Positions 3,332 to 64,000 of a stretch of DNA of 64,000 nt are shown here, one piece after another. Under the pieces are notes generated by a model, which was not told where the DNA came from, did no database searches, and saw only the letters and a program-made list of their open reading frames with translations. Source of the DNA: Patescibacteria group bacterium (lineage in GTDB: Bacteria > Patescibacteriota > Minisyncoccia > Minisyncoccales > Staskawiczbacteraceae); the NCBI GenBank assembly GCA_038065715.1, contig JBBTQL010000004.1, forward strand, positions 35,693-99,692, in the 5' to 3' direction. A program made the position numbers and the translations under genes. The first letter of the stretch is position 1, and each line of letters opens with the position of its first letter.

Positions 3332-4057
3332 TTAGTTTTTTAGGTTAGAGTAAATATCGTTTACTGCATCGTTTTCGTCTAAGGCTTCAAAGAGTTTTTG
3401 CGCTTGTTGTTTTTCTTTTTCTGAAATTTCAACTTCTTCTTTAGCAACATAATCCAAAGACGCAGATTCAATTTTAATCCCCTTTTCTTCTAAGGATTTT
3501 TTTACGCTATCTAAATCTTCTATTTTTGTATAAATTTCAAGTTCGTCTCCGCGCCACTTTACATCATCTGCGCCAGCTTCTATGGCTAAAAGCTCCAGTT
3601 CTTCTTTTGTTTTATTGTTTCCGCTAACAGATATAGCTCCTTTTCTCTCAAACATCCATCTCACAGCTCCTTCGCCTGCCATTTTTCCGTTATTTTGGTT
3701 TAAAATAGATTTTATTTCTCCCAAAGTCCTGTTTGTATTGTCTGTAATGCCGTTAATTATTAAAGCGATTCCTCCTGGCCCAAATCCCTCAAAAGACACC
3801 TCTTCTAAAGTTTCTCCTGCCAATTCTCCGGTACCTTTTTTAATTGCCCGTTCAATATTTTCTTTGGGCATATTCATATTTTTAGCCTGTTCTATCACAG
3901 CCTTAAGTTTGGCGTTTTTAAATGGGTCTCCCGATCCCCCTCCTTCTTTGACGGCTATTGTAATTAACCGGCCATATTTAGAATATATTTTTCCTTTTTT
4001 GGCATCATTGGCCATCTTTGTGGCCATAATTGTTTTTGCATGACTATGTCCCGACAT
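3332..4057 (-). CDS. yebC: YebC/PmpR family DNA-binding transcriptional regulator
   Basis: MSGHSHAKTIMATKMANDAKKGKIYSKYGRLITIAVKEGGG... signature of the YebC family. Forms the common ruvC-yebC arrangement. Confidence 0.85.
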   Translation of the reverse strand: MSGHSHAKTIMATKMANDAKKGKIYSKYGRLITIAVKEGGGSGDPFKNAKLKAVIEQAKNMNMPKENIERAIKKGTGELAGETLEEVSFEGFGPGGIALIINGITDNTNRTLGEIKSILNQNNGKMAGEGAVRWMFERKGAISVSGNNKTKEELELLAIEAGADDVKWRGDELEIYTKIEDLDSVKKSLEEKGIKIESASLDYVAKEEVEISEKEKQQAQKLFEALDENDAVNDIYSNLKN

Positions 4058-7913: not shown

Positions 7914-8748
7914 TTTTATTAAAAATATTATTTTTTATTTCTTTTAAGTCGGCTCCCGTTTTCATTAAAAGCCCGGCAGTTTCAAAAATTTCCTGCGTTG
8001 TTTTTGAATTTCCAAAATTTTCTGTGTAAATTGCCAGTCCTGCCAAAAAGCAGTTGGCAGCCTGTTTTTTTACCCCGTTAGAAAGCCCATCTTTTGAGGG
8101 TTCCTTATTGGATGGGTCGTATGGCCCCGGTTGCTCAAGCTTTCTATCGGGGTTTACAAGATTTAACGCCATCTCTGACAAAGAATAATCTCTTATTATG
8201 TTTATTCTACCAAAGTTTTGGTTTTTTGTCCCGACTTCGTCGAGGATGCTCGATGGCGAAGCCATCGGCACACTTTCACTATCTATATTTAAAATAAGAG
8301 AATCCAGTAAAAACCCATAAGAGTTAAGCTTGCCAGCCAATTCAGTTTTAAAATCTTTTATTCCTAAAGTTATTGTAAGGTCTGGTTTTGTTTCTGAAAA
8401 ATAAAATAAGAGGTTTTCTTTTTTTATATTTCCCCTGTCAATCATTAAATGAATTTTTAATCCTTCTTCATTTTTTTCGTAGTAAACCTGCGAGATTTCA
8501 GCTGTTTTTTGAGGAATTGAAATCACAAAGTTTTTTGGATATGAAATATGGCCTAAGCTAGGCAATAAAAATCGAAATTTTTCTGGAAATTCTTCTATTA
8601 TTAAGTTTACATTTTTATTTAATTCTTTTAAAGTATAAAAAAGAGCCAAAGCAACTGGAATGCTTTCGCCATTTGGGTTATCATTTGGAATAATGCAGAT
8701 ATTTTTTGCTTCAGAAATTAATTGCTTTGCTTCTTGCGGTATTTCCAT
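7906..8748 (-). CDS. Hypothetical protein, possibly a degenerate DHH-family phosphoesterase, carrying a GC-palindrome insertion
   Basis: N-terminus ICIIPNDNPNGESIPVALALF resembles DHH motif I/II but lacks the catalytic His. Overlaps pilB by 8 nt. Palindromic element at 8228-8271 lies in-frame. Confidence 0.35.
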   Translation of the reverse strand: MEIPQEAKQLISEAKNICIIPNDNPNGESIPVALALFYTLKELNKNVNLIIEEFPEKFRFLLPSLGHISYPKNFVISIPQKTAEISQVYYEKNEEGLKIHLMIDRGNIKKENLLFYFSETKPDLTITLGIKDFKTELAGKLNSYGFLLDSLILNIDSESVPMASPSSILDEVGTKNQNFGRINIIRDYSLSEMALNLVNPDRKLEQPGPYDPSNKEPSKDGLSNGVKKQAANCFLAGLAIYTENFGNSKTTQEIFETAGLLMKTGADLKEIKNNIFNKNE

Positions 8749-21181: not shown

Positions 21182-21787
21182 ATGATAGCATTTTTATCGG
21201 GTAAAATTTTATTAAAAAAGGACAAGTTTATCATTCTTGAAGCAGCTGGCGTTGGCTACAAAGTTTTTTTAAATCAGCAAACCCTATCCCGACTCGATCG
21301 AGGATCCTCGACGACTTCGTCGTCGGGATTAAAATTATCAGAAATAGGGCAGGATGTAAAGCTATTTTGCTTCCAAAATATAAAAGAAGATGCTTCGGAT
21401 TTATATGGGTTTTTAAGTTATGACGAGCTTGATTTTTTTGAGGTGCTAAACGATATTCATGGCGTAGGGCCAAAAGCTGCTTTGGAAATTTCTGTGTTAG
21501 GCCCCTTAGAAAAAATTAAGGACAGAATTTTAGCGCAGGACGAAAAAATATTTGAAGGAATTCCCGGAATTGGTTCAAAAAGGGCGTCGTCAATTATTTT
21601 AGAATTGACCGGAAAAATAATGGCGAAGTCCGCCTTTGCTAAAGCTTCGCCAGACGAAGCAGAAACCGCTTTAACCCAGCTTGGTTTTTCAAAACAGCAA
21701 GCAAAGGATGCCCTGGCTCGCGTGCCTGTTGCTGTTAAAAATTCTGAAGACAGAATAAAATTAGCGCTTAAAAATTTAGGAAAATAA
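21182..21787 (+). CDS. ruvA: Holliday junction DNA helicase RuvA
   Basis: MIAFLSGKILLK...GVGYKVF domain I. HhH motifs DIHGVGPKAALEI / GIPGIGSKRASSIIL. 40-nt GC palindrome at 21288-21327 is in-frame. The ORF track's upstream start (21098) is probably spurious. Confidence 0.8.
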   Translation: MIAFLSGKILLKKDKFIILEAAGVGYKVFLNQQTLSRLDRGSSTTSSSGLKLSEIGQDVKLFCFQNIKEDASDLYGFLSYDELDFFEVLNDIHGVGPKAALEISVLGPLEKIKDRILAQDEKIFEGIPGIGSKRASSIILELTGKIMAKSAFAKASPDEAETALTQLGFSKQQAKDALARVPVAVKNSEDRIKLALKNLGK

Positions 21788-22770: not shown

Positions 22771-24039
22771 GTGTTAGATTGGGTAAATATGAGGATAAAA
22801 GAAGCAGTTAAAAAAATATTAGGCAGAAATTTGTTGGGTTTTTATCATTATGGCATGGCTTTTTTGGGAGCTGTGATTTTTGGTTTTCCATCTAAAAATT
22901 TAACTGTTATAGGGGTTACAGGCACCAGCGGTAAATCAACTACTTCTGATTTTATCACAAGAATTTTAGAAGAACCCTTCGACGGGGCCCAGGGCAGGTC
23001 TGGCAATAAGGTGGCTTCAATTTCAACAATAAGATTTAAAATTGCAGAAAAAGAATGGGAAAATAAATATAAAATGACAATGCCCGGCCGTTTTGTTATT
23101 CAAAAGTTTTTAAGGCAGGCAAAAAAAGCAGGATGCAAATTTGTGGTTTTAGAAGTTACTTCGCAAGGCATTGAACAATATCGCCATAAATTTATAAATT
23201 TTGATACAGCTGTTTTTACTAATTTGTCGCCAGAGCATATTGAAAGCCATGGCAGTTTTGAAAATTACAGAAACGCAAAACTAAAACTATTTCGAGCAAC
23301 AAAAAACATCCATATTATAAATACTGATGACGCAAATTCAAAATATTTTTGGAATATTCCGGCAAAACAAAAAATTGGATTTTCAGCCAAAGATGCGCAA
23401 AACGCTAATTTAAAATTAAATTTAATTGGAGACTTTAATATTTTAAACGCCTTAGCGGCAATTTCTGCGGCAAAGGCATATGGCATTGATTTTAGCATTT
23501 GTAAAAGGGCGCTGGAAAAGGCCAAAGGAATTTCTGGCAGAATGGAAGTGATTCAAAAAGAGCCATTCAAAGTTATTGTTGACTATGCTCATACTCCAGA
23601 ACAACTCGAAAGTGTCTATAAGGCACTTTCTCAAAACCCAAAACCTCAAACTCCAAACCCCAAACTTATTTGTGTGCTTGGAAGTTGCGGCGGGGGAAGG
23701 GATAAATGGAAAAGGACTGTTTTAGGAGAAATTGCAAATAAATATTGCGACAAAATATTTATAACCAATGAAGATCCATATGATGAAAACCCCAACCAGA
23801 TTTTATCTGAAATAAAATCTGGAATTATCAATTCTCAATTTCCAATTTCCAATTTATATGAAATTTTAGACCGTAAAGAGGCAATTAAAACTGCAATAAA
23901 ATTAGCAAAATCAGATGATATTGTTATAATCACTGGCAAGGGTTCAGAATCCTGGATGTGCATAGCAAACGGTAAAAAAATCCCCTGGGACGACAGGCAA
24001 ATCGCTAAAGATGCGTTGGGGCTCCAAACCTTGACATAG
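22771..24039 (+). CDS. Mur ligase family protein (MurE/MurF-like central and C-terminal domains)
   Basis: P-loop VIGVTGTSGKSTT. DYAHTPEQLESVY. N-terminal TM helix. Three in-frame repeat inserts (22975-23005; 23634-23665; 23829-23856). Confidence 0.7.
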   Translation: MLDWVNMRIKEAVKKILGRNLLGFYHYGMAFLGAVIFGFPSKNLTVIGVTGTSGKSTTSDFITRILEEPFDGAQGRSGNKVASISTIRFKIAEKEWENKYKMTMPGRFVIQKFLRQAKKAGCKFVVLEVTSQGIEQYRHKFINFDTAVFTNLSPEHIESHGSFENYRNAKLKLFRATKNIHIINTDDANSKYFWNIPAKQKIGFSAKDAQNANLKLNLIGDFNILNALAAISAAKAYGIDFSICKRALEKAKGISGRMEVIQKEPFKVIVDYAHTPEQLESVYKALSQNPKPQTPNPKLICVLGSCGGGRDKWKRTVLGEIANKYCDKIFITNEDPYDENPNQILSEIKSGIINSQFPISNLYEILDRKEAIKTAIKLAKSDDIVIITGKGSESWMCIANGKKIPWDDRQIAKDALGLQTLT

Positions 24040-24059
24040 ATGCTTTAATATGATATGAT
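24031..24059 (+). promoter_or_regulatory. Promoter TTGACA-N17-TATGAT of the DGR-A target gene, conserved with DGR-B
   Basis: ttgaca 24031-24036, 17-nt spacer, tatgat 24054-24059. The same hexamers and spacing occur at 61998-62025. Confidence 0.45.
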
Positions 24060-24218
24060 TAATAATATAGCTCTTTTTTATTGTTACTTGCGAAATTGGC
24101 AGTTATAGCCAAAAGCTACTGAATTATATCGGTATCTTCTGGCTATGACTGCTATGTCGGTACGTCAAGCAGAAACCAGCCTGTCATAATTGGCGGGCAA
24201 AACAGAAAGGAGATTGTC

Positions 24219-24878
24219 ATGGCTGTGCAAGTCATTGGCGATCTATATGTGGAGTTGGATGGGAAGTTGGCGGAGATTAAGCGGCAAATGAGGCAGCAGG
24301 GAGGCTATCCGTTTGACCCGGAGAAATTAAACAAGTTTCTCCAACTAGCTGTCGAGGGCAGGTTCAACGACAACCGGTGCTGGTGCGAGAAGGAAGGAGT
24401 GATCTACTTTGAGGTCACCTCTGACGGCACGACTGGACCCCAATGGATTGAGCGTCTGGAGAAGAAGGGTATCCAGCTCTCCAAGTGGGCCAAGGACGTC
24501 CTGCTGTCTCCGGACTTCAAGCCGACCAACGGCGTGACCACCGAGATCGCTGTCCTCAAGGGCGCGCTTTTTATGGACAATGATCGCATCACGTCTAAGA
24601 TCCGCGCTGAGGCCGACAAGCGCAAGCTCGTCAAGCCCGAAGCCGAACTCGGTTGCCTTATCCGCGACACGTTCACGGACGAGGAAATCGAAGCCATGGG
24701 TCTTGTGTGGATCGTGGCGTTCCACGAGCCCATCAAGGACTCTGACGGCGATCCGACGTTGCTCGGTGCGCGTCGCCTTGGCGATGGCCGTTGGCTGCGC
24801 GCGTGCTGCGGCCTGCCCGACCGCAGGTGGCTTCGCGACCGTGGCTTTGCCTTCGCCGTCTCGCAAGTATCTTCGTAA
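24219..24878 (+). CDS. DGR variable (target) protein A, with the variable region at its C-terminus
   Basis: SD aaaggagattgtc then ATG. 219 aa, ~57% GC. The C-terminal 42 codons are the VR matched by TR-A. Confidence 0.75.
   Translation: MAVQVIGDLYVELDGKLAEIKRQMRQQGGYPFDPEKLNKFLQLAVEGRFNDNRCWCEKEGVIYFEVTSDGTTGPQWIERLEKKGIQLSKWAKDVLLSPDFKPTNGVTTEIAVLKGALFMDNDRITSKIRAEADKRKLVKPEAELGCLIRDTFTDEEIEAMGLVWIVAFHEPIKDSDGDPTLLGARRLGDGRWLRACCGLPDRRWLRDRGFAFAVSQVSS
24741..24866 (+). repeat. DGR-A variable repeat (VR)
   Basis: 126 nt aligned to TR-A (25208-25333). Mismatches fall essentially only where the TR has A (e.g. TR aatcgcaatgac vs VR cgtcgccttggc). The 3' end ggctttgccttcgccgtctcgcaa is identical (IMH-like). 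Confidence 0.8.
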
Positions 24879-25207
24879 GTCCTTTGGGCTTGAGCCTTTG
24901 CTCTAGCCCTTGGATCCTCTGCCCTTTGCATTTCCTCACGGACTTGCACTGGGCAGATTTTTTTTGCTAAAATATAAATGGTAATAGGTGAATCTTGCGG
25001 GAGATCAAGGTTTCCCGCGGCCGAATCCAGTATTCGTATGCTGAGAGCGTTTGCGATTAAGGTTGCAAACGGAGGGCATACGAATTACTTTCAAAAAAGA
25101 AGATACTTGGCGTGGGAAACTAGGGCATTACGATGCCGAATTCGATACAGCCCTGTGATCGTAAAACTACTTCAAGGGGCAGTGGCATAGATGGTTTCTT
25201 GCGTATT

Positions 25208-25333
25208 TCTGACGGCGATCCGAACTTGCTCAGTGCGAATCGCAATGACGATGGCCATTGGCTGAACGCGTACTACGACAAGCCCGACAACAGGTGGAAT
25301 CGCGACAATGGCTTTGCCTTCGCCGTCTCGCAA
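25208..25333 (+). repeat. DGR-A template repeat (TR)
   Basis: Non-coding copy of the VR, rich in AAC/AAT codons (…AACGCGTACTACGACAAGCCCGACAACAGGTGGAATCGCGACAAT…). Confidence 0.8.
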
Positions 25334-25339
25334 CTCTCT

Positions 25340-25699
25340 TCATTTCTCTCCTTGCTTAGGAGAGTTTTGTTTAATAATTTGTCCCGACCAACCACCGAGC
25401 ATTTTGCCAATTTCATCTAGTTTCAATGATAGAGCAATATATTTTTTGTTATCCAATGATTTTGTTTCCCAAAGAATCATTAAAAATATTTTTAACGTAT
25501 CGACCTTTCTAATTGCTAAACGTACATAGGACAATTTTTCTGATTGCCCAAGAAAACTTGCAGTCACTATTGCCTCTATTGCTTCAACAAAAAGTTTATC
25601 AATTTTTTCACCAAGAGAATATTTATGTATTTTTGGTATAATTAAATAGTGTTGGTACCAAAAAAGATAAGCTTCTTTCAACTTTTGCAAAACAGGCAA
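25340..25699 (-). CDS. avd: DGR accessory variability determinant Avd-A (TTG start)
   Basis: 120 aa. ...KYSLGEKIDKLFVEAIEAIVTASF...KLDEIGKMLGGWSGQIIKQ matches Avd four-helix-bundle proteins (compare Bordetella bAvd ...EVGRILGSWIARVNRK). Starts at TTG 25697-25699 just downstream of the C10 tract, as in copy B. The ORF track's longer start (25834) runs through the homopolymer. Confidence 0.7.
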   Translation of the reverse strand: MPVLQKLKEAYLFWYQHYLIIPKIHKYSLGEKIDKLFVEAIEAIVTASFLGQSEKLSYVRLAIRKVDTLKIFLMILWETKSLDNKKYIALSLKLDEIGKMLGGWSGQIIKQNSPKQGEK

Positions 25700-25705
25700 C
25701 AGTCT

Positions 25706-25715
25706 GGGGGGGGGG
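25706..25715. repeat. Homopolymeric G10 (C10 on the avd strand) in the avd/RT divergent intergenic region
   Basis: agtctGGGGGGGGGGattaaaag. The equivalent position in DGR-B has G7. Confidence 0.9.
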
Positions 25716-25739
25716 ATTAAAAGCTGAGTTATTTTGATT

Positions 25740-26726
25740 ATGAAAATTACTTTGCAACATAAATACGAAGACATCATAAGCGTTGAGAATATTTTGGAAG
25801 CATGGCAAGAGTTTCTTCTCGGCAAAAGAAACAAGCCCGATGTTCAAGAATTTTCTCTCTGTCTGATGAATAATGTTTTTAATTTGCACAACGACTTATC
25901 CAATCATACCTACAAACACGGAGGCTATCAACAATTTAAAATTAACGACCCAAAGCCAAGAACAATCCACAAAGCCAGCGTAAAAGACAGATTATTGCAC
26001 CACGCAGTATATCGTATATTATACCCGTTTTTTGATAAAAAGTTTATTGCAGACTCTTTCTCTTGCAGAAACAACAAAGGCACTCATAAAGCATTAAACA
26101 AATTCAGGGAGTTCAGCTATATTGTTTCCAAAAACAACACAAACACCTGCTGGATTTTAAAATGCGACATAAAAAAGTTTTTTGCCAGCGTTGATCAGCA
26201 GATACTAATTAAAATTTTAGAAAAATATATTTCAGAAAAAGATATTATCAACTTTCTAAAAGAAATAATTTTTGGTTTTAAACCCAATGGTTTGCCTCTC
26301 GGTAATTTGACTTCCCAGTTGTTCGCAAATGTTTATCTGAATGAATTTGACCAGTTTGTAAAACACAAATTGAAAGTAAAATACTATATTAGGTATGCCG
26401 ATGACTTCGTAATTTTATCAGAGAACAAAAATTATTTAAAAAACATAATTCCAGAGCTAAAATATTATTTAAAAAACAATTTAAAACTGGAAATTCATCC
26501 AAATAAAATTTTTATTAAAACATTGAATTCTGGCGTTGATTTTTTAGGCTGGATTAATTTTACAGATCATAGAGTTTTAAGGACAAAAACTAAAAACAGA
26601 ATATTAAAGAGAATAAAAAATAATTCAAGTATTGAAACATTAAATTCTTATTCGGGTTTGTTAAAACATGGAAATATGAACAAAATGATTAAGAAATTAT
26701 TTAAGGAAACGGAGATTGCTTTTTAA
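25740..26726 (+). CDS. DGR reverse transcriptase A
   Basis: RT motifs including GLPLGNLTSQLFANVYLNEFD (DGR-type motif 4) and YIRYADDFV (YxDD). 329 aa. Nearly identical to the partial RT at 63686. Confidence 0.85.
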   Translation: MKITLQHKYEDIISVENILEAWQEFLLGKRNKPDVQEFSLCLMNNVFNLHNDLSNHTYKHGGYQQFKINDPKPRTIHKASVKDRLLHHAVYRILYPFFDKKFIADSFSCRNNKGTHKALNKFREFSYIVSKNNTNTCWILKCDIKKFFASVDQQILIKILEKYISEKDIINFLKEIIFGFKPNGLPLGNLTSQLFANVYLNEFDQFVKHKLKVKYYIRYADDFVILSENKNYLKNIIPELKYYLKNNLKLEIHPNKIFIKTLNSGVDFLGWINFTDHRVLRTKTKNRILKRIKNNSSIETLNSYSGLLKHGNMNKMIKKLFKETEIAF

Positions 26727-34538: not shown

Positions 34539-34567
34539 TTGACACAGAGTTGAGGGGGGGGTATTAT
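34539..34567 (+). promoter_or_regulatory. Promoter TTGACA-N17-TATTAT whose spacer holds a G8 homopolymer (candidate phase-variable promoter)
   Basis: ttgaca 34539-34544. Spacer cagagttgaGGGGGGGG (17 nt, G run 34554-34561). tattat 34562-34567. Directly upstream of the secreted protein gene at 34665. Confidence 0.5.
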
Positions 34568-34664: not shown

Positions 34665-36359
34665 ATGAGAATAAAATATTTTTTAATAACAGCTGTTTTA
34701 GCAACATCAATTTTAGGTTCTGGCGGTTTTGTGAAAGCGCAAACCACAGACAATTCAGCGTTAATTGCCCAACTTCAAGCGCAAATTCAGGCAATTCTGC
34801 AACAAATAGCGCAACTGCAAGCTCAGCAAGATACAAACGCGGTCCAAAACTCTGCGTCAGAAAATGCTAATTCAGACAGTTCAAAAGCAAACTGGTGCTA
34901 TAATTTCAAACAAAACTTGTGGATTGGTAAAAATGGCAGGCCTGTTGAGGCTTTACAGATTGCTTTGTCTAAAGAAGGTTTGTTTGACGCCAGTTTAATT
35001 AAGAATCCATGGAGATTTGGCCCCTCTACCTTATTGGCAGTAATCAAGTTTCAGAATAAATATAGCATAAAACCAACAGGATATGTGGGCTTCGCCACAA
35101 ACAAAAAACTAAACGAACTCTACGGCTGCAAAACCACCGAGTCATCAGTTACAGTTACTTCGCCCAACGGCGGAGAGGAGTGGGTGCGAGGGTCAACTCA
35201 TAATGTTACGTGGACGTCTCAAAATGTGGAAAGAGATGTTTATCTTACAATTAAAAACTTTGACACAAACGTCATAAAGAGCATTTCTTTAGCGCCTGTT
35301 TCGCCGGTCAGCGATTCTGCTTCTTTTAATATTCCGTCTGATTTGGCCGTGGGAAACAAATATAAGGTTAGAGTGGGAAATAGCGATGTTTCAGATTACA
35401 GCGACAATTATTTTAGCATTCTTGATACAACAACTTCTTCAAATGCGTCTATTACCGTCACTTCGCCCAACGGCGGAGAAACATGGCAAGTCGGCGGAAC
35501 GCATAATATCACATGGTTCAGTCAGGGTGCAAATGCTATAAATTATAATGTTCAAATCGGAATTATTGATAATCGCTATAGTACGGAATCAGGAGATAGA
35601 TCCGAAAAAATTATAGTAAATTCTATTCCTAATACTGGCAGTTATTCTTGGACGGTGCCTCAATCTATTGGAACAATGAATCTGAATGATACTATCCAAC
35701 CGGTTTATAAAATTGTTGTACATTCTCGAAGTGATGCGGTTACAGGAGTGGCTCTTGGAGACTCGAGCGATAATCCTTTCAGTATTGTGGCGCCGACGGT
35801 TGCCTGTACGTCATTTACCTATTCAGCTTGGGGGGCTTGCCAGTCAAACAATACCCAAACAAGAACAGTTGTATCATCCTCGCCAACTGGATGCGCAGGA
35901 GGCAGCCCAATATTATCGCAATCTTGCGGAGTAGTAAAGACTGTATTCAGCAATAGCCAAATTTATCTTGACGCCAATAGCAAAGTAGCGCCCTTGTCTT
36001 GCACTAATTATAAGTGTAACGGCTCTTTTGGCTATTGCTCTGCTTCTTGCGGAGGAGGATATTATCCAGATAATTTAACAGCCCAGAAATTGTGCCAGAA
36101 AAAAGGTTACGATGCAGCTTCAAGTTTCACCATAAAAAATGGTTTTTATGCATCTTGCAGCGATAACTATATGTGGAAATGGAATGGGGTTAGCGCTGAA
36201 TATGTTTGGTCTTGCGTTAAAAATAGCGGTATAGACACTGTCACTTGCTCAAAAACTGTTGGGACTACGGCAAGCATTGATTCTCAAGATCAATTAGCGT
36301 CTATTTCTAGCGCAATACAAAGAATAGCTCAACAAATTCAAGCATTATTTGAAAGGTAA
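34665..36359 (+). CDS. Secreted protein with a peptidoglycan-binding domain, repeated SPNGGE-W-type beta domains and a Cys-rich C-terminus
   Basis: Signal peptide MRIKYFLITAVLATSILGSGGFVKA. Q-rich coiled coil. PG_binding_1-like GKNGRPVEALQIALSKEG...IKFQNKYSIKPTGYVG. Two VTVTSPNGGEEW/ETW..G.TH.TW repeats. Many Cys in the last 150 aa. Confidence 0.65.
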   Translation: MRIKYFLITAVLATSILGSGGFVKAQTTDNSALIAQLQAQIQAILQQIAQLQAQQDTNAVQNSASENANSDSSKANWCYNFKQNLWIGKNGRPVEALQIALSKEGLFDASLIKNPWRFGPSTLLAVIKFQNKYSIKPTGYVGFATNKKLNELYGCKTTESSVTVTSPNGGEEWVRGSTHNVTWTSQNVERDVYLTIKNFDTNVIKSISLAPVSPVSDSASFNIPSDLAVGNKYKVRVGNSDVSDYSDNYFSILDTTTSSNASITVTSPNGGETWQVGGTHNITWFSQGANAINYNVQIGIIDNRYSTESGDRSEKIIVNSIPNTGSYSWTVPQSIGTMNLNDTIQPVYKIVVHSRSDAVTGVALGDSSDNPFSIVAPTVACTSFTYSAWGACQSNNTQTRTVVSSSPTGCAGGSPILSQSCGVVKTVFSNSQIYLDANSKVAPLSCTNYKCNGSFGYCSASCGGGYYPDNLTAQKLCQKKGYDAASSFTIKNGFYASCSDNYMWKWNGVSAEYVWSCVKNSGIDTVTCSKTVGTTASIDSQDQLASISSAIQRIAQQIQALFER

Positions 36360-38037: not shown

Positions 38038-38054
38038 TTGTATTTATTATTTTA

Positions 38055-38403
38055 GTGGAAGCGCCGGGGTCGAACCCGGGTCCAGAAATTTTTTAAAAAT
38101 AAATCTACAAATTTATCTTGCTTTGTTGTTTGGATATTAAATAAGAAGCAAGAAAAATGTTTAATATCCTAATTCTCGTAAATCTCGACAGTTCCCCGAG
38201 AAATAAAACTGCCTATCCTGAAAATATAACACCCTCGGTCCATTTATCAGGAGTCAATGGCGAGGATGCAGCATTAAGCTAAAGCTAGTGCTGGTTGCCT
38301 ATTAAATAAATTAGCAATTATGTTTTTTCTATAAGTTTAACCAGGTTATAGAAAACTGGATTTGCATATTTTTAATGAAACATCTGTCAAAACTTACGCT
38401 CCC
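38055..38403 (-). ncRNA. ssrA: tmRNA (SsrA)
   Basis: 3' end GGACCCGGGTTCGACCCCGGCGCTTCCA (T-arm + acceptor) at 38056-38083 on the minus strand. 5' GGGAGCG at 38397-38403 pairs with the 3' CGCUUCC to form a 7-bp acceptor stem. Candidate tag reading frame gct aat tta ttt aat agg caa cca gca cta gct tta gct taa gives (A)NLFNRQPALALA* (plus 38274-38315). Lies immediately downstream of smpB. Confidence 0.65.
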
Positions 38404-39830: not shown

Positions 39831-41482
39831 TAAAAGAAGAAATAAAAAAAATAGTGGAAAACTCAATTAAAAACCTGCAAAAACAGGGCGCATTTTTAAA
39901 ATTAAAAATGCCAGAAATTTTAATTGAGCGGCCTAAAGAAAAAATACGCGGTGACTATTCAACCAACATTGCCTTTGTAATTGGAAAAGATGTTTTGAAA
40001 AATCCATTTGAAACGGCATTGCTTTTGAAAACAGAAATTGTCTCGCTTTGCGAGATCTCGCGCAGCGAGAAAAAACAAAAATCTGTAATAGAAAAAGTTG
40101 AGGTAGTGGGAGGGTTTATTAATTTTTTTGTTGCTGACGATTATTTTAAAAATCAGCTGCAAATTATTTTAAAACAAAAAAACAAATTTGGAGATTTAAA
40201 ACTTGGTAAAAGTCAAAAAGTAAACATAGAATTTATTTCTGCAAATCCAACAGGGCCGTTAACTTTAGGAAACGGCAGAGGAGGATTTTGTGGCGATGTT
40301 TTGGCTAATGTTTTAGAAAAAGCAGGATATAAAGTTGAAAGAGAATATTATATTAACAATACCGGAGCTCAAATTAAAAAACTTGGGCATTCTGTAATTG
40401 GAGATGCAGAAGCTGTTTACAAAGGAAAATATATTATTGATTTAAGAAACAAAGTTAAGGGAGATGACCCCGAGAAAGTTGGAGAAAAATCGGCAAAAAT
40501 TATTTTAGAAAAAATGATAAAGCCGTCTGTAAAAAAAATGGGAATTAAATTTGACACATGGTTTTCAGAAAAAACTCTCTATAAAAATAAAGAAGTAGAT
40601 AAAACAATACAAGAATTGGCTAAAAAAGGGTTCACCTATGAAAGCGAAGACGCTGTGTGGTTTAAATCTAAAGAATTGGGCGATGACAAAGACAGGGTTT
40701 TGGTGAGAGCCGACGGAATTAAAACATATTTTGCTTCAGATATTGCTTATTTTAAAAATAAATTTAAAAGAGGGTTTGGTAAACTTATTATGTTTTTGGG
40801 AGCCGACCACTATGGATATGTTCCGAGGCTAAAAGCTGCCTCGCTTGCTTTTGGTTTTAAAAAAGACAGTATTGATGCTATTGTTATGCAGTTGGTGCGG
40901 CTTTATGAAAAAGGCAAAGAAGTAAGAATGGCAAAAAGGACTGGTATTTATGTAACAATAGATGAGTTAATTGGCGAGGTTAGTTTGGATGTTGCCAGAT
41001 TTTTCTTTTTAATGATAAGCCCTAATACCCACATGAATTTTAATTTGGATTTAGCAAAAGAAAAATCAGAGAAAAATCCGGTTTTTAAAGTGCAATATGC
41101 GCATGCCCGAATTTGCTCAATTTTCCGAAAATTTGGAAATTTCAAATTTTCCCGATTTCATCGAGGATCCTCAATGGCAAAGCCATCGGGACAAATTTCA
41201 AATTTAAAATTATTAAATGAGCCGAGCGAGTTAGGGTTAATTAGAGAATTAATTAAACTTCCAGAAATTATTGAAGAGATAGCTAAAGATTATCAAGTTC
41301 AAAGACTACCGCAATACGCAATGGATTTAACTGATGCATTCCATAGATTTTATGAAAACTGTAAAGTCCTGAGCGAAGTCGAAGGATTGCGTGATGCCCG
41401 CTTGTCTCTTGTTATGGCAACAAAAATTGTTTTAAAAAATACATTAGACTTAATGGGAATATCTGCTCCTGAAAAAATGTGA
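39827..41482 (+). CDS. argS: Arginyl-tRNA synthetase
   Basis: ISANPTGPLTLGNGRGGFCGDVLANVLEKAGYKV class I signature. C-terminal anticodon-binding DALR domain. Composite heptamer + palindrome insertion at 41129-41210 is in-frame. Confidence 0.9.
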   Translation: MIKEEIKKIVENSIKNLQKQGAFLKLKMPEILIERPKEKIRGDYSTNIAFVIGKDVLKNPFETALLLKTEIVSLCEISRSEKKQKSVIEKVEVVGGFINFFVADDYFKNQLQIILKQKNKFGDLKLGKSQKVNIEFISANPTGPLTLGNGRGGFCGDVLANVLEKAGYKVEREYYINNTGAQIKKLGHSVIGDAEAVYKGKYIIDLRNKVKGDDPEKVGEKSAKIILEKMIKPSVKKMGIKFDTWFSEKTLYKNKEVDKTIQELAKKGFTYESEDAVWFKSKELGDDKDRVLVRADGIKTYFASDIAYFKNKFKRGFGKLIMFLGADHYGYVPRLKAASLAFGFKKDSIDAIVMQLVRLYEKGKEVRMAKRTGIYVTIDELIGEVSLDVARFFFLMISPNTHMNFNLDLAKEKSEKNPVFKVQYAHARICSIFRKFGNFKFSRFHRGSSMAKPSGQISNLKLLNEPSELGLIRELIKLPEIIEEIAKDYQVQRLPQYAMDLTDAFHRFYENCKVLSEVEGLRDARLSLVMATKIVLKNTLDLMGISAPEKM

Positions 41483-57629: not shown

Positions 57630-57698
57630 AAAAGTAACTCTTTATTTCAGTCAAGATGACCGAAAAGAGTTAGACCCCCCCAGAAAGGAGAGTGCAAG

Positions 57699-57953
57699 AT
57701 GCTGGTTTTGTCCCGCAAGAAGAACGAGAGCATTGTCATCAACGACGATATCACGATTGTCGTGATAGAAATCCGCGGCGACAAGGTTCGCCTCGGCATT
57801 GATGCGCCAAAAGAGGTGCCTGTCCACCGGCGCGAAGTGTTTGACGCGATACGTCGCGATGATGCTTCAGCAGCTAGTACGGGGATTAAAACCTCCGAGA
57901 CCCCCGATAATCTGGAGGATCCCGCCGAGGAAAGCCCTCAAGACCCAGGTTAA
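57699..57953 (+). CDS. csrA: Carbon storage regulator CsrA (GC-rich, with an acidic C-terminal extension)
   Basis: MLVLSRKKNESIVINDDITIVVIEIRGDKVRLGIDAPKEVPVHRREVFDAI aligns along its full length with CsrA/RsmA. ~55% GC against a ~33% background. Confidence 0.8.
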   Translation: MLVLSRKKNESIVINDDITIVVIEIRGDKVRLGIDAPKEVPVHRREVFDAIRRDDASAASTGIKTSETPDNLEDPAEESPQDPG

Positions 57954-59467: not shown

Positions 59468-62014
59468 ATGAATATGGCAAAATATAATCCTCAAAAAATT
59501 GAGAAGAAATGGCAAGAGGCTTGGTATAAATCAAGCATTTTTAAAGCTAAAAACGGGTCTAAAAATAAGAAATTTTACCTTTTAGTGGAGTTTCCTTATC
59601 CTTCGGGAGACGGGCTTCATGTCGGCCATTGCCGAAGCTATACTGCCTTAGATATTATTGCCAGAAAAAAAAGAATGCAGGGATTTAATGTTTTATTCCC
59701 AATGGGCTGGGACGCTTTTGGATTGCCAACTGAAAATTATGCCATAAAAAAGGGAGTACACCCGTCTGTTGTGACAAAAAAGAATACAGATAACTTTAGG
59801 CGGCAGATGAAAAGTTTGGGGCTTTCTTTTGACTGGAGCCGAGAAATAAATACCACAGACCCAAAATATTATAAATGGACGCAGTGGATTTTTTTGCAGT
59901 TATTTAAAAATAACTTGGCTTATAAAGATAAAATTGCAATCAACTGGTGCCCTAAAGATAAAATTGGATTGGCAAATGAAGAAGTGATAAATGGCAAATG
60001 CGAAAGATGCGGCGCAAAAGTTGAAAAAAGAGATAAAGAGCAATGGATGATAAAAATTACAAAATATGCCGACAGATTAATTGAAGATTTAAATTTAGTT
60101 GATTATTTAGAAAAAATAAAAATACAGCAGAAAGATTGGATAGGCGAGTCACATGGAGCGTTGATAAAATTTTCGTTAGAAGGAAGCGAAGAATTCATAG
60201 AAGTTTTTACAACCAGAATAGACACAATATTTTCTGGCACGTTTTTAATTTTATCTCCAGGACACAATTTTATAGATAAATATAAAAATAAAATTGAAAA
60301 CATTGATGAAGTTTTAAAATATAGAGAAACCGCAAAAAATACTTCTGATATAGATAGAACTAATCAAGATAAAGATATTACAGGAGTGGAATTAAAAGGA
60401 ATTACAGTAAAAAATCCTGCCACAAATGAAGAAATGCCAGTTTGGACAGCTGATTTTGTTTTAGAGCAATACGGAACAGGAGTCGTTTTTGCTGATGCCC
60501 ATGATAAAAGAGATTTTAAAATGGCAAAAAAATATGGGATACCTTTGCGAACTTCAATAAAACCAGAAAATGAACTATCGGCGCAAAAAGCAAAAAATTT
60601 GGAAGAATGTTTTGAGGGCGAAGGCGCTCTTTATAATTCTATGCATTTTGACGGCTTAACTTCTTCTGAAGCCCGACCTAAAATAATTTCTTGGTTAAGG
60701 GAAAAAGGATATGCGGAAAACAAAATAAGCTATAAGCTTCGAGATTGGGTTTTTTCGCGCCAGCATTATTGGGGCGAGCCAATACCAATGATTTTTTGCG
60801 TAAAATGCGGTTGGCAGGCTGTTTTAGAAAAAAATCTGCCCGTTGAATTGCCTAAGGTAAAAAAATATCAGCCAACAGATACAGGCGAATCTCCTCTTTC
60901 TGCTATTGAAAAATGGGTAAATGTAAAATGTCCAAAATGCAAAGGACCGGCAAAAAGAGAAACAGACACAATGCCTAATTGGGCAGGTTCAAACTGGTAT
61001 TACTTGGCATATACTATGCCAAAAATTTCAAATTTCAAATTTCAAATTTCAAATTCTGCGAAAGAATTTTCGCAGTGGATGCCAGTTGACTGGTATAATG
61101 GCGGAATGGAGCACACAACTTTGCATTTATTGTATTCAAGATTTATTTTTAAATTTTTATGGGATATTGGAGCTGTTCCAAAAATAATTGGGGCAGAACC
61201 ATATAAAAAAAGAACTTCGCATGGAATGATTTTAGGCGAAGGGGGAATTAAAATGTCAAAGTCAAAGGGAAATGTAATAAATCCAGATTCAGTTGTGAAA
61301 CAATATGGAGCCGACACCTTAAGAGTTTACGAAATGTTTATCGGGCCTTTTGAGCAAATGATTCCTTGGGATATAAAGGGGGTTGTTGGTTCGCGCAGGT
61401 TTTTAGAAAAAATTTACAACTTAGTTTTGAAGAAGGCAATTCCGGCAAAAATCCCGACGGTCTCGCCGTCGAGGACCCGCGACGAAGTCGGGGCAGAAGA
61501 AAATTTTAAAAAACTTTTGCATAAAACAATAAAAAAGGTTGGTGACGATATTGAGGCAATGAAATTTAACACAGCAGTGAGCTCTTTAATGGAATTTGTA
61601 AATGCATGGAGCATTGCTGAAAATAGTTTAGATAAACCAGCCTCCGATAAAGGCTACGGCTTGGCGAAGAAAGATTTGCAAGAATTTTTAAAGATTTTGT
61701 CGCCTTTTGCCCCGCATTTGTCAGAAGAGCTTTGGCAAAGAGCTGGATTTAAAGGTTTGTGCTGCGCTCAAAAATGGCCTAAGTATGACGAAAAATTAAT
61801 TGAAGAAAAAAACATATTGCTTATTGTGCAAATTAACGGTAAAGTTAGAGATAAAATAGAAGTTAACGCAGGCATTACTCAAAAACAAGCTGAAGAAATA
61901 GTTTTAAAATTAGAAAAAATTAAAAACCGTATAACTAATATTAAAGAAGTGGAAAAAGTTGTTTTTGTGCCAGGTAAGTTAATAAATTTTGTGACTATTG
62001 ACAAGGATAAGTAA
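59468..62014 (+). CDS. leuS: Leucyl-tRNA synthetase
   Basis: HVGHCRSYTALDIIARKKRMQGFNVLFPMGWDAFGLP (HIGH region). KMSKSKGN. 848 aa. Heptamer array + hairpin at 61023-61077 and palindrome at 61453-61494 are in-frame. Confidence 0.9.
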   Translation: MNMAKYNPQKIEKKWQEAWYKSSIFKAKNGSKNKKFYLLVEFPYPSGDGLHVGHCRSYTALDIIARKKRMQGFNVLFPMGWDAFGLPTENYAIKKGVHPSVVTKKNTDNFRRQMKSLGLSFDWSREINTTDPKYYKWTQWIFLQLFKNNLAYKDKIAINWCPKDKIGLANEEVINGKCERCGAKVEKRDKEQWMIKITKYADRLIEDLNLVDYLEKIKIQQKDWIGESHGALIKFSLEGSEEFIEVFTTRIDTIFSGTFLILSPGHNFIDKYKNKIENIDEVLKYRETAKNTSDIDRTNQDKDITGVELKGITVKNPATNEEMPVWTADFVLEQYGTGVVFADAHDKRDFKMAKKYGIPLRTSIKPENELSAQKAKNLEECFEGEGALYNSMHFDGLTSSEARPKIISWLREKGYAENKISYKLRDWVFSRQHYWGEPIPMIFCVKCGWQAVLEKNLPVELPKVKKYQPTDTGESPLSAIEKWVNVKCPKCKGPAKRETDTMPNWAGSNWYYLAYTMPKISNFKFQISNSAKEFSQWMPVDWYNGGMEHTTLHLLYSRFIFKFLWDIGAVPKIIGAEPYKKRTSHGMILGEGGIKMSKSKGNVINPDSVVKQYGADTLRVYEMFIGPFEQMIPWDIKGVVGSRRFLEKIYNLVLKKAIPAKIPTVSPSRTRDEVGAEENFKKLLHKTIKKVGDDIEAMKFNTAVSSLMEFVNAWSIAENSLDKPASDKGYGLAKKDLQEFLKILSPFAPHLSEELWQRAGFKGLCCAQKWPKYDEKLIEEKNILLIVQINGKVRDKIEVNAGITQKQAEEIVLKLEKIKNRITNIKEVEKVVFVPGKLINFVTIDKDK

Positions 62015-62025
62015 ATATGCTATGA
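61998..62025 (+). promoter_or_regulatory. Promoter TTGACA-N16-TATGAT of the DGR-B target gene
   Basis: ttgaca 61998-62003 (inside the leuS 3' end) and tatgat 62020-62025. Matches the DGR-A promoter. Confidence 0.45.
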
Positions 62026-62201
62026 TTAATAATACAGCTCTTTTTAAGTGAAAATACTTGCAAAAACAGCGGTTATAGCCAAAAGCGACCGAAGGTCGTC
62101 CTGAGCAGAGCCGAAGGACAACAAATCGGTATTTTCTGGCTATGACTGCTATGGTAGTAGTCAAGCGAAATGGTGAAACCCTAAAGAAAGGAAAAAGCAC
62201 C

Positions 62202-62822
62202 ATGTCGTACGACAAGCAGACAGCCGAGTTCATCGCCACTGTGGTGCAGAACATCCCCAAAATGTCAGGCGATGTTATGCAGGGTTGGATTGGGAATCCA
62301 AAAGCGCTACAGAAGCTCCTCTTGGGTCTATGCCCTTCTGTCAATGAGCCCAAGGAAGTCTCGTTGCTCCGCAAGCTCGCCAGCGTTCAGGTGGAGGGCG
62401 TTGCAAGATTCGTCGTTGACGACGATACCCTGCAGGCGGCCAACATCGGCTGGACTGGCGACAACTTCAAAAAGTTTTTCGCCAAGAAGGTTGAGGAGGA
62501 TGTTCCCGCCTGCGCTATCGCTGTTCACCGGCTGGAACGCGCGTCTTCGGATGCGCCCATTCTCACCGAACTCGGTGACCGCGCCGAAATCAGCCTCGCG
62601 CACCTGTTCGAGCTGATCAAAAAGCAGTCCAAGGGCGAAACTGGCCAGTTGTTGGTTAATGGTTATGCGAATGTCGCATATGTCCGTGGAACCGATGGCA
62701 ACCTCTGGGCTGTGCTTGCGGCCTGGCGCTCTTACTGCGGTTGCTGGGGTGTCGAGGCTGACTCGGTTGAGGATCCGGACGGGTGGCGCGGTAGCCGCCG
62801 GATTCTCTCCCGCGATTCTTGA
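62202..62822 (+). CDS. DGR variable (target) protein B, with the variable region at the extreme C-terminus
   Basis: SD aaaggaaaaagcacc then ATG at 62202. ~57% GC. Last 36 codons = VR-B. The ORF track's upstream ATG (62142) lies in the conserved leader. Confidence 0.7.
   Translation: MSYDKQTAEFIATVVQNIPKMSGDVMQGWIGNPKALQKLLLGLCPSVNEPKEVSLLRKLASVQVEGVARFVVDDDTLQAANIGWTGDNFKKFFAKKVEEDVPACAIAVHRLERASSDAPILTELGDRAEISLAHLFELIKKQSKGETGQLLVNGYANVAYVRGTDGNLWAVLAAWRSYCGCWGVEADSVEDPDGWRGSRRILSRDS
62704..62813 (+). repeat. DGR-B variable repeat (VR)
   Basis: 110 nt aligned to TR-B (63165-63274). Substitutions essentially only at TR adenines (TR tac ggt tac tgg aat ... aac vs VR tgc ggt tgc tgg ggt ... 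gac). Shared 3' attctctcccgc. Confidence 0.8.
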
Positions 62823-62867
62823 AACTTAATCCTTTTGGGATTTTGGATCTTGAATCCTTTGAATCTA

Positions 62868-62916
62868 TGGCTCTCTGAAACTTTGAAAAAAGTAGTAAGA
62901 GAGCCTTTTTGTTTTG
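62868..62916 (+). terminator. Intrinsic terminator after target B (ggctctct/agagagcc + T-run)
   Basis: 8-bp stem, 22-nt loop, ttttt gtttt. Confidence 0.5.
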
Positions 62917-63164
62917 TGAAAAAGTAATGTAGAATAAATCTAAGGAATGCTAAGTATGAAGGCTACGGCTTTCATAAAGCGCTCCGAAAATGTATATTGC
63001 AGAATTATTGCGGATACGTCTTCAATAAGAGTTGATATACATATTTCAAAAAAAGAAAAGAATCGGTGTGGCGTGCTGGCGGACTTTGAGGTCCCAAATA
63101 AGATACAGCCCCTAGAGTATTCAAAGGGCAGTGGCATTGATGGCGCGTTGCATATTAATTAGGG

Positions 63165-63274
63165 TCTGGGCTGTGAATGCGAACTGGAACTCTAACTACG
63201 GTTACTGGAATGTCGAGGCTAACTCGGTTGAGAATCCGAACAGGTGGAACGATAGCAACCAGATTCTCTCCCGC
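63165..63274 (+). repeat. DGR-B template repeat (TR)
   Basis: AAC/AAT-rich (…AACTGGAACTCTAACTACGGTTACTGGAATGTCGAGGCTAACTCG…). Encodes LWAVNANWNSNYGYWNVEANSVENPNRWNDSNQ in the VR frame. Confidence 0.8.
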
Positions 63275-63642
63275 TACTGTTTTCTTTCTTCCGCTTTTAT
63301 CGCGGAAGTTTTGCTTATTATTCCTTTTTTCCAGCCACCGATTATCTTACCAATGCCTTCTATCTCAGCGCCAAGCGAGATATATTGTTTATTAGAAACG
63401 AGTTTTGTTTCCCATAAAAGCTGAAAGAAAAAACGCAACGAATCAATTTTGTCCGATGTCGCTTCAAGCAAAACAAGTTTTTTATTTATTGGCGTATACG
63501 TAGCTTTTCTTAATAACTCAAGAAGATCTAAAAATAAAATATCTACTTTAGTCCCGATTCCGAACCGCGCGATTCGTTCAATATTGCGATGCACTTCCAT
63601 CCACTGTTTATATATCAATTTGGATTTTTGCAAAACTGGCAA
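63274..63642 (-). CDS. avd: DGR accessory variability determinant Avd-B (TTG start)
   Basis: 122 aa. ...LGAEIEGIGKIIGGWKKGIISK C-terminus. Co-linear with Avd-A. Stop codon overlaps the last 2 nt of TR-B. TTG start 6 nt from the C7 tract. Confidence 0.7.
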   Translation of the reverse strand: MPVLQKSKLIYKQWMEVHRNIERIARFGIGTKVDILFLDLLELLRKATYTPINKKLVLLEATSDKIDSLRFFFQLLWETKLVSNKQYISLGAEIEGIGKIIGGWKKGIISKTSAIKAEERKQ

Positions 63643-63648
63643 CAGTCT

Positions 63649-63655
63649 GGGGGGG
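63649..63655. repeat. Homopolymeric G7 in the avd-B/RT-B divergent intergenic region
   Basis: agtctGGGGGGGattagaag. Homologous position to the G10 tract in DGR-A. Confidence 0.9.
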
Positions 63656-63685
63656 ATTAGAAGAATAACTATTTATATTTTGATT

Positions 63686-64000
63686 ATGAAAATTGTTTTG
63701 AAACATAAATATGAATATTTAATTAGCGTTAATAATTTATTGGAAGCGTGGACAGAATTTATCAAGGGGAAGCGCAACAAAAGCGATGTTCAGATTTTTT
63801 CATTTCATTTAATGGATAATATTTTACAACTTCATTGTGATTTAAAAAATGGCACATATAAGCATGGAGGCTATCAACAATTTAAAATCAACGACCCAAA
63901 ACCAAGGATAATTCACAAAGCCAGCGTAAAAGACAGATTATTGCACCACGCAGTATATCGTATATTATACCCGTTTTTTGATAAAAAGTTCATTGCAGAC
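63686..64000 (+). CDS. DGR reverse transcriptase B (5' part; continues beyond the window)
   Basis: MKIVLKHKYEYLISVNNLLEAWTEFIKGKRNK...GGYQQFKINDPKPRIIHKASVKDRLLHHAVYRILYPFFDKKFIAD. The last ~130 nt are ~95% identical at the DNA level to RT-A 25920-26050. Confidence 0.85.
   Translation, partial: MKIVLKHKYEYLISVNNLLEAWTEFIKGKRNKSDVQIFSFHLMDNILQLHCDLKNGTYKHGGYQQFKINDPKPRIIHKASVKDRLLHHAVYRILYPFFDKKFIAD

Follow-up and report, generated by a model that had tools for sequence, protein, structure and literature searches.

A Patescibacteria diversity-generating retroelement and the RNA and repeat features that it shares with its clade

Diversity-generating retroelements (DGRs) of the candidate phyla radiation (CPR) were reportedly first described by Paul et al. 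in 2017. DGR clade 2 is restricted to Patescibacteria and has targets without recognisable domains (Roux et al. 2021, PMC8144416), and the layout TR-(avd)-RT, in which a template repeat (TR) is followed by avd and a reverse transcriptase (RT) gene, corresponds to architecture B3 (Wu et al. 2018, PMC5758913). According to the survey that defined this architecture, 34% of DGRs have GC-rich inverted repeats past the initiation of mutagenic homing (IMH) sequence, and a minority have terminators downstream of their target genes (Wu et al. 2018, PMC5758913). A duplex bracketing the TR and a stem-loop after it are predicted in 207 of 278 Avd-containing DGRs, and in the BPP-1-type RNA of Bordetella the thumb-ring, RT-binding and Avd-binding elements all lie in a 140-nt spacer (Sp) 3' of the TR (bioRxiv 10.1101/2023.10.23.563531); the RT-10 motif is this structured BPP-1 spacer between the TR and brt (Weinberg et al. 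2017, PMC5737381). Here we describe DGR-A, a DGR cassette in a 64,000-nt stretch (the window; positions 35,693 to 99,692 of contig JBBTQL010000004.1, assembly GCA_038065715.1) of a Patescibacteria metagenome-assembled genome (MAG) from Hainich groundwater. DGR-A is intact and typical of the Patescibacteria DGR clade and, as a DGR, is no discovery in itself. The features that merit follow-up belong to the whole clade, namely an RNA architecture that is strongly supported and a polymorphic repeat between avd and the RT gene that is strongly observed.

The variable repeat (VR) of DGR-A lies at the 3' end of the target gene and aligns without gaps to the downstream TR at an offset of 467 nt (Table 1), which bears out the repeat boundaries given in an earlier reading of the DNA letters (hereafter, the sequence-only reading). 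Over 126 nt there are 22 mismatches, 21 of which fall at TR adenines (ten replaced by G, eight by C and three by T in the VR), so that 21 of the 30 TR adenines are altered in the VR; the hypergeometric probability of at least 21 of 22 mismatches falling on TR adenines is 6.7e-16. The sole non-adenine mismatch within this length, at TR C25225, adjoins a mutated adenine. This tabulation by TR base agrees with the earlier count of more than 20 adenine mismatches and with the expectation that over 90% would fall at adenines, and a spread over all four bases was not found. When the 3' edge is included, 23 of the 27 differences in the whole repeat are at codon positions 1 and 2, and the TR carries seven AAY codons (Y being C or T), the AAC/AAT richness noted previously. 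A 25-nt 3' segment of 60% GC, TGGCTTTGCCTTCGCCGTCTCGCAA, is identical in the two repeats, and the first non-adenine differences past the repeat occur at 24867 and 24869, with the TR diverging from 25334; both the GC-rich invariant end and the non-adenine differences at its extreme edge had been recognised before. An invariant 3' segment with divergence beyond it is the IMH/IMH* pattern, and we predict an IMH role for this segment. The VR ends 12 nt before the stop codon of its open reading frame (ORF). A repeat finder assigns the TR/VR pair to a family (D2) of two copies only, and there is therefore no further DGR-A target in the window.

The 28 mutable adenines of the TR correspond to about 7e16 DNA variants and about 3e16 protein variants, with just one codon (AAG at 25280) able to turn into a stop by adenine mutagenesis. 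Variation across the wider target family follows the same positions. In an alignment of 120 members, mean entropy is 2.33 bits for codons whose first or second position is templated by a TR adenine, rising to 2.9-3.4 bits for AAY codons, versus 0.43 bits for the other VR codons (Mann-Whitney P = 4e-8) and 0.77 bits for the non-VR core. A CAA codon within the invariant 3' segment is not variable in the same alignment.

The RT gene, which most likely starts at ATG 25740 or TTG 25734, contains GLPLGNLTSQLFANVYL and RYADDFVIL; both the DGR-specific motif 4, LGNLTSQLFANVY (LGNLTSQ), and the YADD motif expected from the sequence-only reading are present, and the YxDD active site is not missing. Its best solved relative is 8ub7_A, an RT of 328 residues (E = 7.6e-41, residues 10-294 aligned), with GLPLGNLTSQLFANVY aligned to GIPIGSLTSQLFANVY and RYADDFVIL to RYMDDIVVL, whereas group II intron RTs in the same PDB comparison have E values of ~1e-17 (2e-17). 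Agreement of its residues 138, 181-182 and 215-216 with those numbered for bRT in the Handa preprint leads us to take 8ub7_A as the Bordetella DGR RT. An Avd homologue had been placed between TR and RT, and its presence is upheld by the Pfam bAvd profile, which passes its cut-off on this ORF; its orientation needs correction, as the gene lies on the minus strand and reads from 25699 to 25340. The NCBIfam model NF033474 (DivGenRetAVD) aligns over positions 1-102 of 104 with 65 bits, below its 80-bit cut-off, and a PDB sequence search with Avd returned nothing significant.

Compared with the BPP-1 DGR (mtd - avd - TR - Sp - brt), DGR-A has in common adenine-specific transfer from TR to VR, a homologous RT with the same motif-4 signature, an Avd, a C-terminal VR in a predicted C-type-lectin fold, and an invariant GC-rich IMH-like end. 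In DGR-A, however, avd is inverted and placed between TR and RT, a G tract separates avd from the RT gene, and the host is a cell rather than a phage.

The target protein has no sequence match in Pfam, NCBIfam or, when its profile was used, the PDB, and its more than 1,600 homologues are all unnamed and from Patescibacteria. A first AlphaFold2 model, built from 38 sequences, was poor (predicted local distance difference test score, pLDDT, 61.5), and a Foldseek search of it gave no significant match. A model built from the 120-sequence alignment reached a pLDDT of 90.4, and its structure matches include TvpA and Mtd; by this model the target is a C-type-lectin fold with the VR at its C-terminus. 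The protein differs from Treponema denticola TvpA, a C-type-lectin fold of the formylglycine-generating enzyme type, in sequence (identity at most 10%), in its much smaller size (219 aa), in a two-helix N-terminal module that is swapped among the family, and in having no signal peptide or lipobox; a transmembrane segment is likewise absent. The N-terminal module, of about 50 aa (e.g. ...GQLNAIVKKLGG...FLxGEL.VSE), is exchanged among target proteins, and in the target-family alignments the same module occurs on targets of different VR types (loci L008, L010, L025, L048 and L065), which suggests domain shuffling onto C-type-lectin cores.

DGR-A is flanked by a Mur-type (MurE-type) ligase gene upstream and a NIF3-family gene downstream. 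These flanks are housekeeping genes, and the element is therefore a chromosomal, cellular DGR. Its order is target/VR - TR - (avd, inverted) - RT, and every part that the sequence-only reading had listed for a complete, intact system (TR/VR pair, DGR-type RT, Avd, and a target with a C-terminal VR) was found. Using the RT, we retrieved 80 related Patescibacteria loci (54-74% identity), and the same cassette order is present in 56, these being the loci with sufficient upstream sequence. Each of the 56 comprises a target of ~200 aa with a C-terminal VR, 240-550 nt, a TR, an opposite-strand avd and an RT gene, and all have adenine-biased TR/VR mismatches. Relatives of the RT in the protein collection number at least 8,000. 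A Patescibacteria host, a chromosomal location, small targets lacking transmembrane segments and recognisable domains, and close relatives of RT and target that number thousands in CPR MAGs are all shared with CPR clade 2, and the order and orientation of TR, avd and RT with architecture B3; no feature of DGR-A excludes membership in the clade, to which it probably belongs on these characters. Unlike in the survey that defined B3, which sorts DGRs by gene order alone, the target and the TR are each followed by a terminator in essentially every DGR-A relative.

A paralogous cassette, DGR-B, is cut by the end of the window. It lies downstream of a gene for an 848-aa aminoacyl-tRNA synthetase of the tRNA-synt_1 family, which we take to be the leucyl enzyme. 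In its VR/TR pair, 21 of 24 mismatches are at TR adenines (P = 2.8e-13). The promoter (61998-62026), 5' untranslated region (UTR) hairpin, RNA domain, TR, inverted avd, G tract and RT are shared with DGR-A, and identity between the two cassettes is 78% over the first 300 nt of the RT region, while the two targets have no detectable sequence similarity. A full DGR-B RT (326 aa) is present in the related locus L088.

The TR is embedded in what appears to be a discrete structured RNA. An extended -10 element lies just past the terminator that closes the target transcript, and the motif TGnTAnnnT is found ~190-255 nt (mostly 220-235) upstream of the TR in 25 of 50 loci; transcription of the TR RNA would then start near 24980. 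The 5' domain that follows ends in a three-helix junction, P1-P3, immediately 5' of the TR, with P1 as a 12-bp closing helix and the repeat starting 3 nt past its 3' strand. Among 48 sequences, compensatory changes were found in 20 of the 23 pairs of P1-P3; 96.6% of cells are paired versus 75.5% in column shuffles and 31-56% in slid-partner controls, and double-change cells number 275 versus 81 in shuffles. Extension of the alignment to the inferred promoter gave six helices with 49 consensus pairs, 45 of which show compensatory changes. A covariance model of P1-P3 finds exactly one match per locus, at a constant place, in 68 of the 80 loci, including ~20 outside the building set, and matches the window twice only, at 25065-25218 and 63022-63167. 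Rfam has no family for any DGR RNA element, whether the window was searched at gathering scores or 23990-25760 at E up to 5, and neither RT-1 to RT-19 nor any other Rfam covariance model matched the DGR RNA.

On the 3' side of the TR, a pyrimidine linker pairs with the A-rich strand of the 5' domain. Matched partners give -7.5 kcal/mol versus -5.7 for mismatched ones (P = 7e-8), and the duplex covaries among loci (GAAGC/GCUUC, AUAAAGA/UCUUUAU, ACGAAGA/UCUUCGU); in DGR-A it consists of eight pairs and one A-A mismatch. We also considered a conserved linker A as an unpaired priming nucleotide and rejected this, as the A takes part in a covarying base pair and falls on the avd stop codon. The linker is followed by a hairpin of variable sequence, usually with a T run after it, which is predicted within ~60 nt past the TR in every locus examined; in DGR-A it overlaps the 3' end of avd on the opposite strand. 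From the extended -10 to this hairpin and U tract, a TR RNA of ~390 nt can be inferred, and covariation strongly supports the predicted architecture as a clade-wide one.

As in the Bordetella RNA, a TR-bracketing duplex and a post-TR stem-loop are kept in DGR-A. The two RNAs differ in the placement of everything else: past the TR, the DGR-A RNA appears to continue for only ~40 nt (linker, hairpin, U tract) in place of the 140-nt Sp of BPP-1, a large structured RNA (~225 nt, six helices) lies 5' of the TR, and the upstream strand of the duplex is ~100 nt from the TR, whereas it adjoins the TR in BPP-1. Likewise, DGR-A resembles Rfam RT-10 in having a DGR-associated structured RNA that flanks the TR, but this RNA is on the other side of the TR and gave no RT-10 match at E up to 5. 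We consider it reasonably likely that the retroelement RNA of the clade is permuted relative to that of Bordetella, with the protein-binding scaffold 5' of the TR and the RNA ending at a terminator directly after it.

Because of the adenine bias of the mismatches, the DGR-like RT, the Avd, the C-type-lectin fold, the family entropy, the 56 loci, DGR-B and the RNA covariation, we hold with high confidence that DGR-A is a Patescibacteria-clade DGR in which adenine-mutagenic copying of the TR would diversify a C-type-lectin target. In the mechanism that we propose, the ~390-nt RNA would be transcribed from the extended -10 (24965-24973) and end at 25346-25372. Its 5' domain, the 25095-25103/25337-25345 duplex and the 3' stem-loop would hold the TR as a loop on an RT-Avd complex, on which the RT would copy the TR to cDNA, misincorporating opposite the 28 mutable adenines. 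The cDNA would then replace the VR up to the invariant IMH-like segment, recoding 21 codons on the ligand-binding face of the target and opening up the ~3e16 protein variants calculated above.

An ordinary duplication that diverged by chance beside an unrelated RT (of a group II intron, a retron or a defence system) could draw on the fact that NCBIfam, which has no DGR RT model, gives a group II intron RT model as its best RT match, far below cut-off. However, the RT is ~23 orders of magnitude nearer the Bordetella DGR RT than the group II RTs, no intron RNA or other RNA family was found for the element in Rfam, and this explanation is refuted by the adenine pattern, RT affinity, the presence of Avd and the recurrence of the arrangement in at least 56 loci, so that we give it practically no weight. 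A less easily dismissed alternative accepts the DGR as intact in sequence but takes it to be silent or nearly so, the VR having been diversified earlier and now being fixed. The contigs, which come from several samples, gave no sign of present-day activity in this population. A silent element would fit the single, identical VR in every contig retrieved via the flanking MurE-type ligase gene, the identity of the DGR-B region in two further assemblies and the unusually short G tract (G7) of DGR-B. All of these contigs are consensus assemblies, though, which cannot reveal minor variants, and the same codons are hypervariable across the wider family. Moreover, two diverged paralogous cassettes have kept all their ORFs, both repeats, the IMH and the RNA helices intact, which implies continued selection. 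We regard a silent element as rather unlikely.

Poly-G and poly-C tracts of Neisseria genes are phase-variation repeats. Homopolymeric tracts near promoters drive phase variation in Bordetella pertussis as well (PMC1891110). A repeat of this kind, G10 in DGR-A, occupies the short gap between the divergent avd and RT genes. At the same place in 67 related loci is a G run of 6-14, with a mode of 9-11 (one locus with 6, two with 7, eight with 8, 17 with 9, 22 with 10, 14 with 11, one with 13 and two with 14), and in six loci (GA)n or (GT)n stands in place of the G run. Across 547 kb of loci, G/C runs of at least 8 number 65 at the avd-RT site and 4 at all other positions. In further assemblies of this population, G9 for G10 is the sole difference from the window over the 4.45 kb of sequence compared (from 22789). 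In addition, two sets of contigs, each encoding one identical RT, carry tracts of 10, 10, 10, 11, 11, 11, 12 and 12 in the first set and of 9, 9, 9, 10 (five times), 11 and 12 in the second; the flanks in both sets are identical save one substitution each, and many of the contigs end at the tract. The tract is conserved in position and variable in length, with real variation and sequencing slippage inseparable in these contigs.

Like phase-variation repeats, the tract is a length-polymorphic G/C homopolymer of 9-12 nt in a short gap between divergent genes, for which other repeats can substitute, and as a slip-prone repeat with length polymorphism among otherwise identical sequences it resembles a contingency locus, sequencing slippage being possible. 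Unlike them, it lies within neither ORF, and a role as a sigma-70 -35/-10 spacer is not supported, as spacer lengths between the best hexamer pairs range over 9-25 nt and do not cluster at 17. Translation through the tract, which the difference of 3 between C10 and C7 would allow, was rejected because DGR-B has no start codon between the upstream stop and the TTG, and because the alignment to the NCBIfam Avd model begins at residue 1 of the short form. It is quite possible, if somewhat short of an even chance, that the tract is instead a fixed-function element (a G-rich leader or ribosome-binding mimic for RT, a C-rich leader for avd) and that its length differences reflect sequencing or assembly slippage. 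Three points speak for this explanation: short reads are prone to error in homopolymers of 9-12 G, the tract is where many contigs break, and the spacer model lacks a consistent 17-nt spacing. On the other hand, the replacement of G(n) by (GA)n or (GT)n at the same position in six loci argues for selection on repetitiveness and not on sequence, three independent sets of sequences that are otherwise identical vary in tract length, and long G/C runs are concentrated at this one site. We read the tract as a hypermutable repeat and, purely as a hypothesis, suggest that it may modulate avd or RT expression. That the DGR machinery is gated by the G tract or another simple repeat, with cells switching stochastically between DGR-on and DGR-off, is a possibility that we raise tentatively and regard as doubtful; the joint reading, in which a permuted clade RNA is combined with such gating of mutagenesis, is put forward with the same reserve. 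Full-text searches joining DGR or Patescibacteria with homopolymer or phase-variation terms, in a literature covered incompletely, found no description of the tract.

Similar runs were seen at other sites. A G8 run ends the spacer of a canonical TTGACA-N17-TATTAT promoter (34539-34567) upstream of a 564-aa ORF at 34665, and is another candidate length-variable tract in this AT-rich genome. A C7 run (57675-57681) lies in the 5' UTR of an 84-aa ORF (57699-57953), just upstream of the ribosome-binding site AAAGGAGAG; the ORF corresponds to Pfam CsrA in the matching locus L088. In locus L073, downstream of the DGR RT, G10 (3404-3413) is directly followed by TATAAT, with an ATG 7 nt past the hexamer. 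In these genomes, G tracts beside -10 elements may be a promoter feature of wider occurrence.

DGR-A adds one example to a clade with thousands of members, and its value lies in the clade-wide features that comparison exposes. The RNA architecture is that of the largest cellular DGR clade and differs from that of the only DGR with a solved ribonucleoprotein structure; the clade RNA offers a test of which RNA elements are universal in DGR reverse transcription, and the ~390-nt RNA provides a defined substrate for reconstitution. If the tract does control expression, a targeted hypermutator would be switched on and off stochastically in its turn, which would bear on how cells limit the cost of continuous mutagenesis. 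The target family, with its C-type-lectin fold and no signal peptide, has no known ligand, and its hosts are thought to live attached to host cells.

Table 1. Features of DGR-A and DGR-B, in window coordinates.
Feature	Coordinates	Strand	Remarks
Putative target promoter	24031-24059	+	TTGACA, 17 nt, TATGAT, TG before -10; 11/12 consensus matches; consensus match only
Long 5' UTR hairpin	24099-24152	+	GCAGTTATAGCCAAAAG ... CTTCTGGCTATGACTGC; kept in DGR-A, DGR-B and 5 other loci
Target gene	24219-24878	+	219 aa; C-type-lectin fold (predicted); no Pfam or NCBIfam family
VR	24741-24866	+	Mutated part 24757-24841; IMH-like invariant part 24842-24866
Degenerate ~8-nt array	24879-24935	+	CYTTGG core; directly after target stop
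Terminator-like hairpin	24919-24965	+	CTGCCC ... GGGCAG + T8; read from sequence; long loop; putative target transcript end
Extended -10	24965-24973	+	TGCTAAAAT; inferred TR RNA promoter; TGnTAnnnT in 25/50 loci
Structured 5' domain of TR RNA	24980-25207	+	~225 nt, six helices, covariation
Helix H1	24997-25018		5' domain
Helix H2	25029-25041 with 25076-25089		5' domain
Helix H3	25048-25071		5' domain
A-rich strand	25093-25103		5' domain
Helix P1	25110-25121 with 25193-25204		5' domain
Helix P2	25125-25136		5' domain
Helix P3	25150-25180		5' domain
TR	25208-25333	+	Similarity reaches 25341; IMH*-like part 25309-25333
Pyrimidine linker	25337-25345	+	UCUUCAUUU; pairs with A-rich strand 25095-25103 (AAAAAUGAAGA in consensus)
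avd	25340-25699	-	119 aa, TTG start; Pfam bAvd 45.3 bits vs cut-off 40
Stem-loop and U tract	25346-25372	+	Terminator-like; directly after TR; place of other DGRs' Avd-binding stem-loop
G10 tract	25706-25715	.	Within 40-nt gap between avd start and RT start
DGR RT	25740-26726	+	328 aa; RVT_1 E = 1.1e-24; alternative TTG start 25734
DGR-B	61998-64000	+	Paralogous cassette; cut by window end
DGR-B target	62202-62822		
DGR-B VR	62704-62820		
DGR-B RNA domain	62955-63153		
DGR-B TR	63165-63281		
DGR-B hairpin	63288-63308		
DGR-B avd	63642-63274	-	
DGR-B G7	63649-63655		
DGR-B RT	from 63687		

Upstream of the target gene, the 5' UTR hairpin has 24 predicted pairs, 13 of them with a compensatory change in a small alignment, and it is nearly identical in DGR-A and DGR-B (62069-62149), with apical-loop insertions in DGR-B and in locus L001. 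Downstream of the target stop codon lies the CYTTGG array, which is also present in DGR-B (62823-62880). Across 50 loci, CCTTGG is 43-fold enriched in the 70 nt past target stop codons, and CYTTGG cores occur 3.6 times per 70 nt versus 0.38 in the background, mostly at a spacing of 7-8 nt. The array sits past the IMH, where BPP-1 has a homing-aiding GC-rich inverted repeat, and DGR-A differs from BPP-1 in having no such single inverted repeat there; the array may mark the recipient site. Hairpins equivalent to the GC-rich one that follows it, with T runs, are found in related loci.

The target genes also stand out in their GC content at third codon positions (GC3). Over ~50 loci, mean GC3 is 0.68 in the non-VR part of the target versus 0.41 for the RT, with a flank GC of 0.435, and in DGR-A the values are 0.75 for the non-VR part (24219-24740) versus 0.33 for the RT; this richness holds whatever the host GC. 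A gradient of GC3 towards the VR, as expected of repair-biased conversion, was looked for and is not supported, with only a weak, non-monotonic trend (0.64, 0.72, 0.68). For the covarying RNA domain (which is also not in Rfam) with its TR-bracketing duplex, the clade-wide terminator hairpin right behind the TR, the G tract, the CYTTGG array and the GC3 bias, we found no description in the searchable literature, although a prior description is possible.

Elsewhere in the window, a transfer-messenger RNA (tmRNA) gene at 38053-38403 on the minus strand (Rfam, 112 bits; tag peptide ANLFNRQPALALA) is the sole Rfam family and ARAGORN match. Three copies of a GC-rich element of ~42-75 nt (TCCCGAC...CGAGGAT...) stand out from the AT-rich background at 8226-8300, 21287-21328 and 41147-41221. 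The copy at 21287 is clearly palindromic (it ends in GTCGGGA), and the element resembles a repeat of the repetitive extragenic palindromic (REP) or miniature inverted-repeat transposable element (MITE) type.

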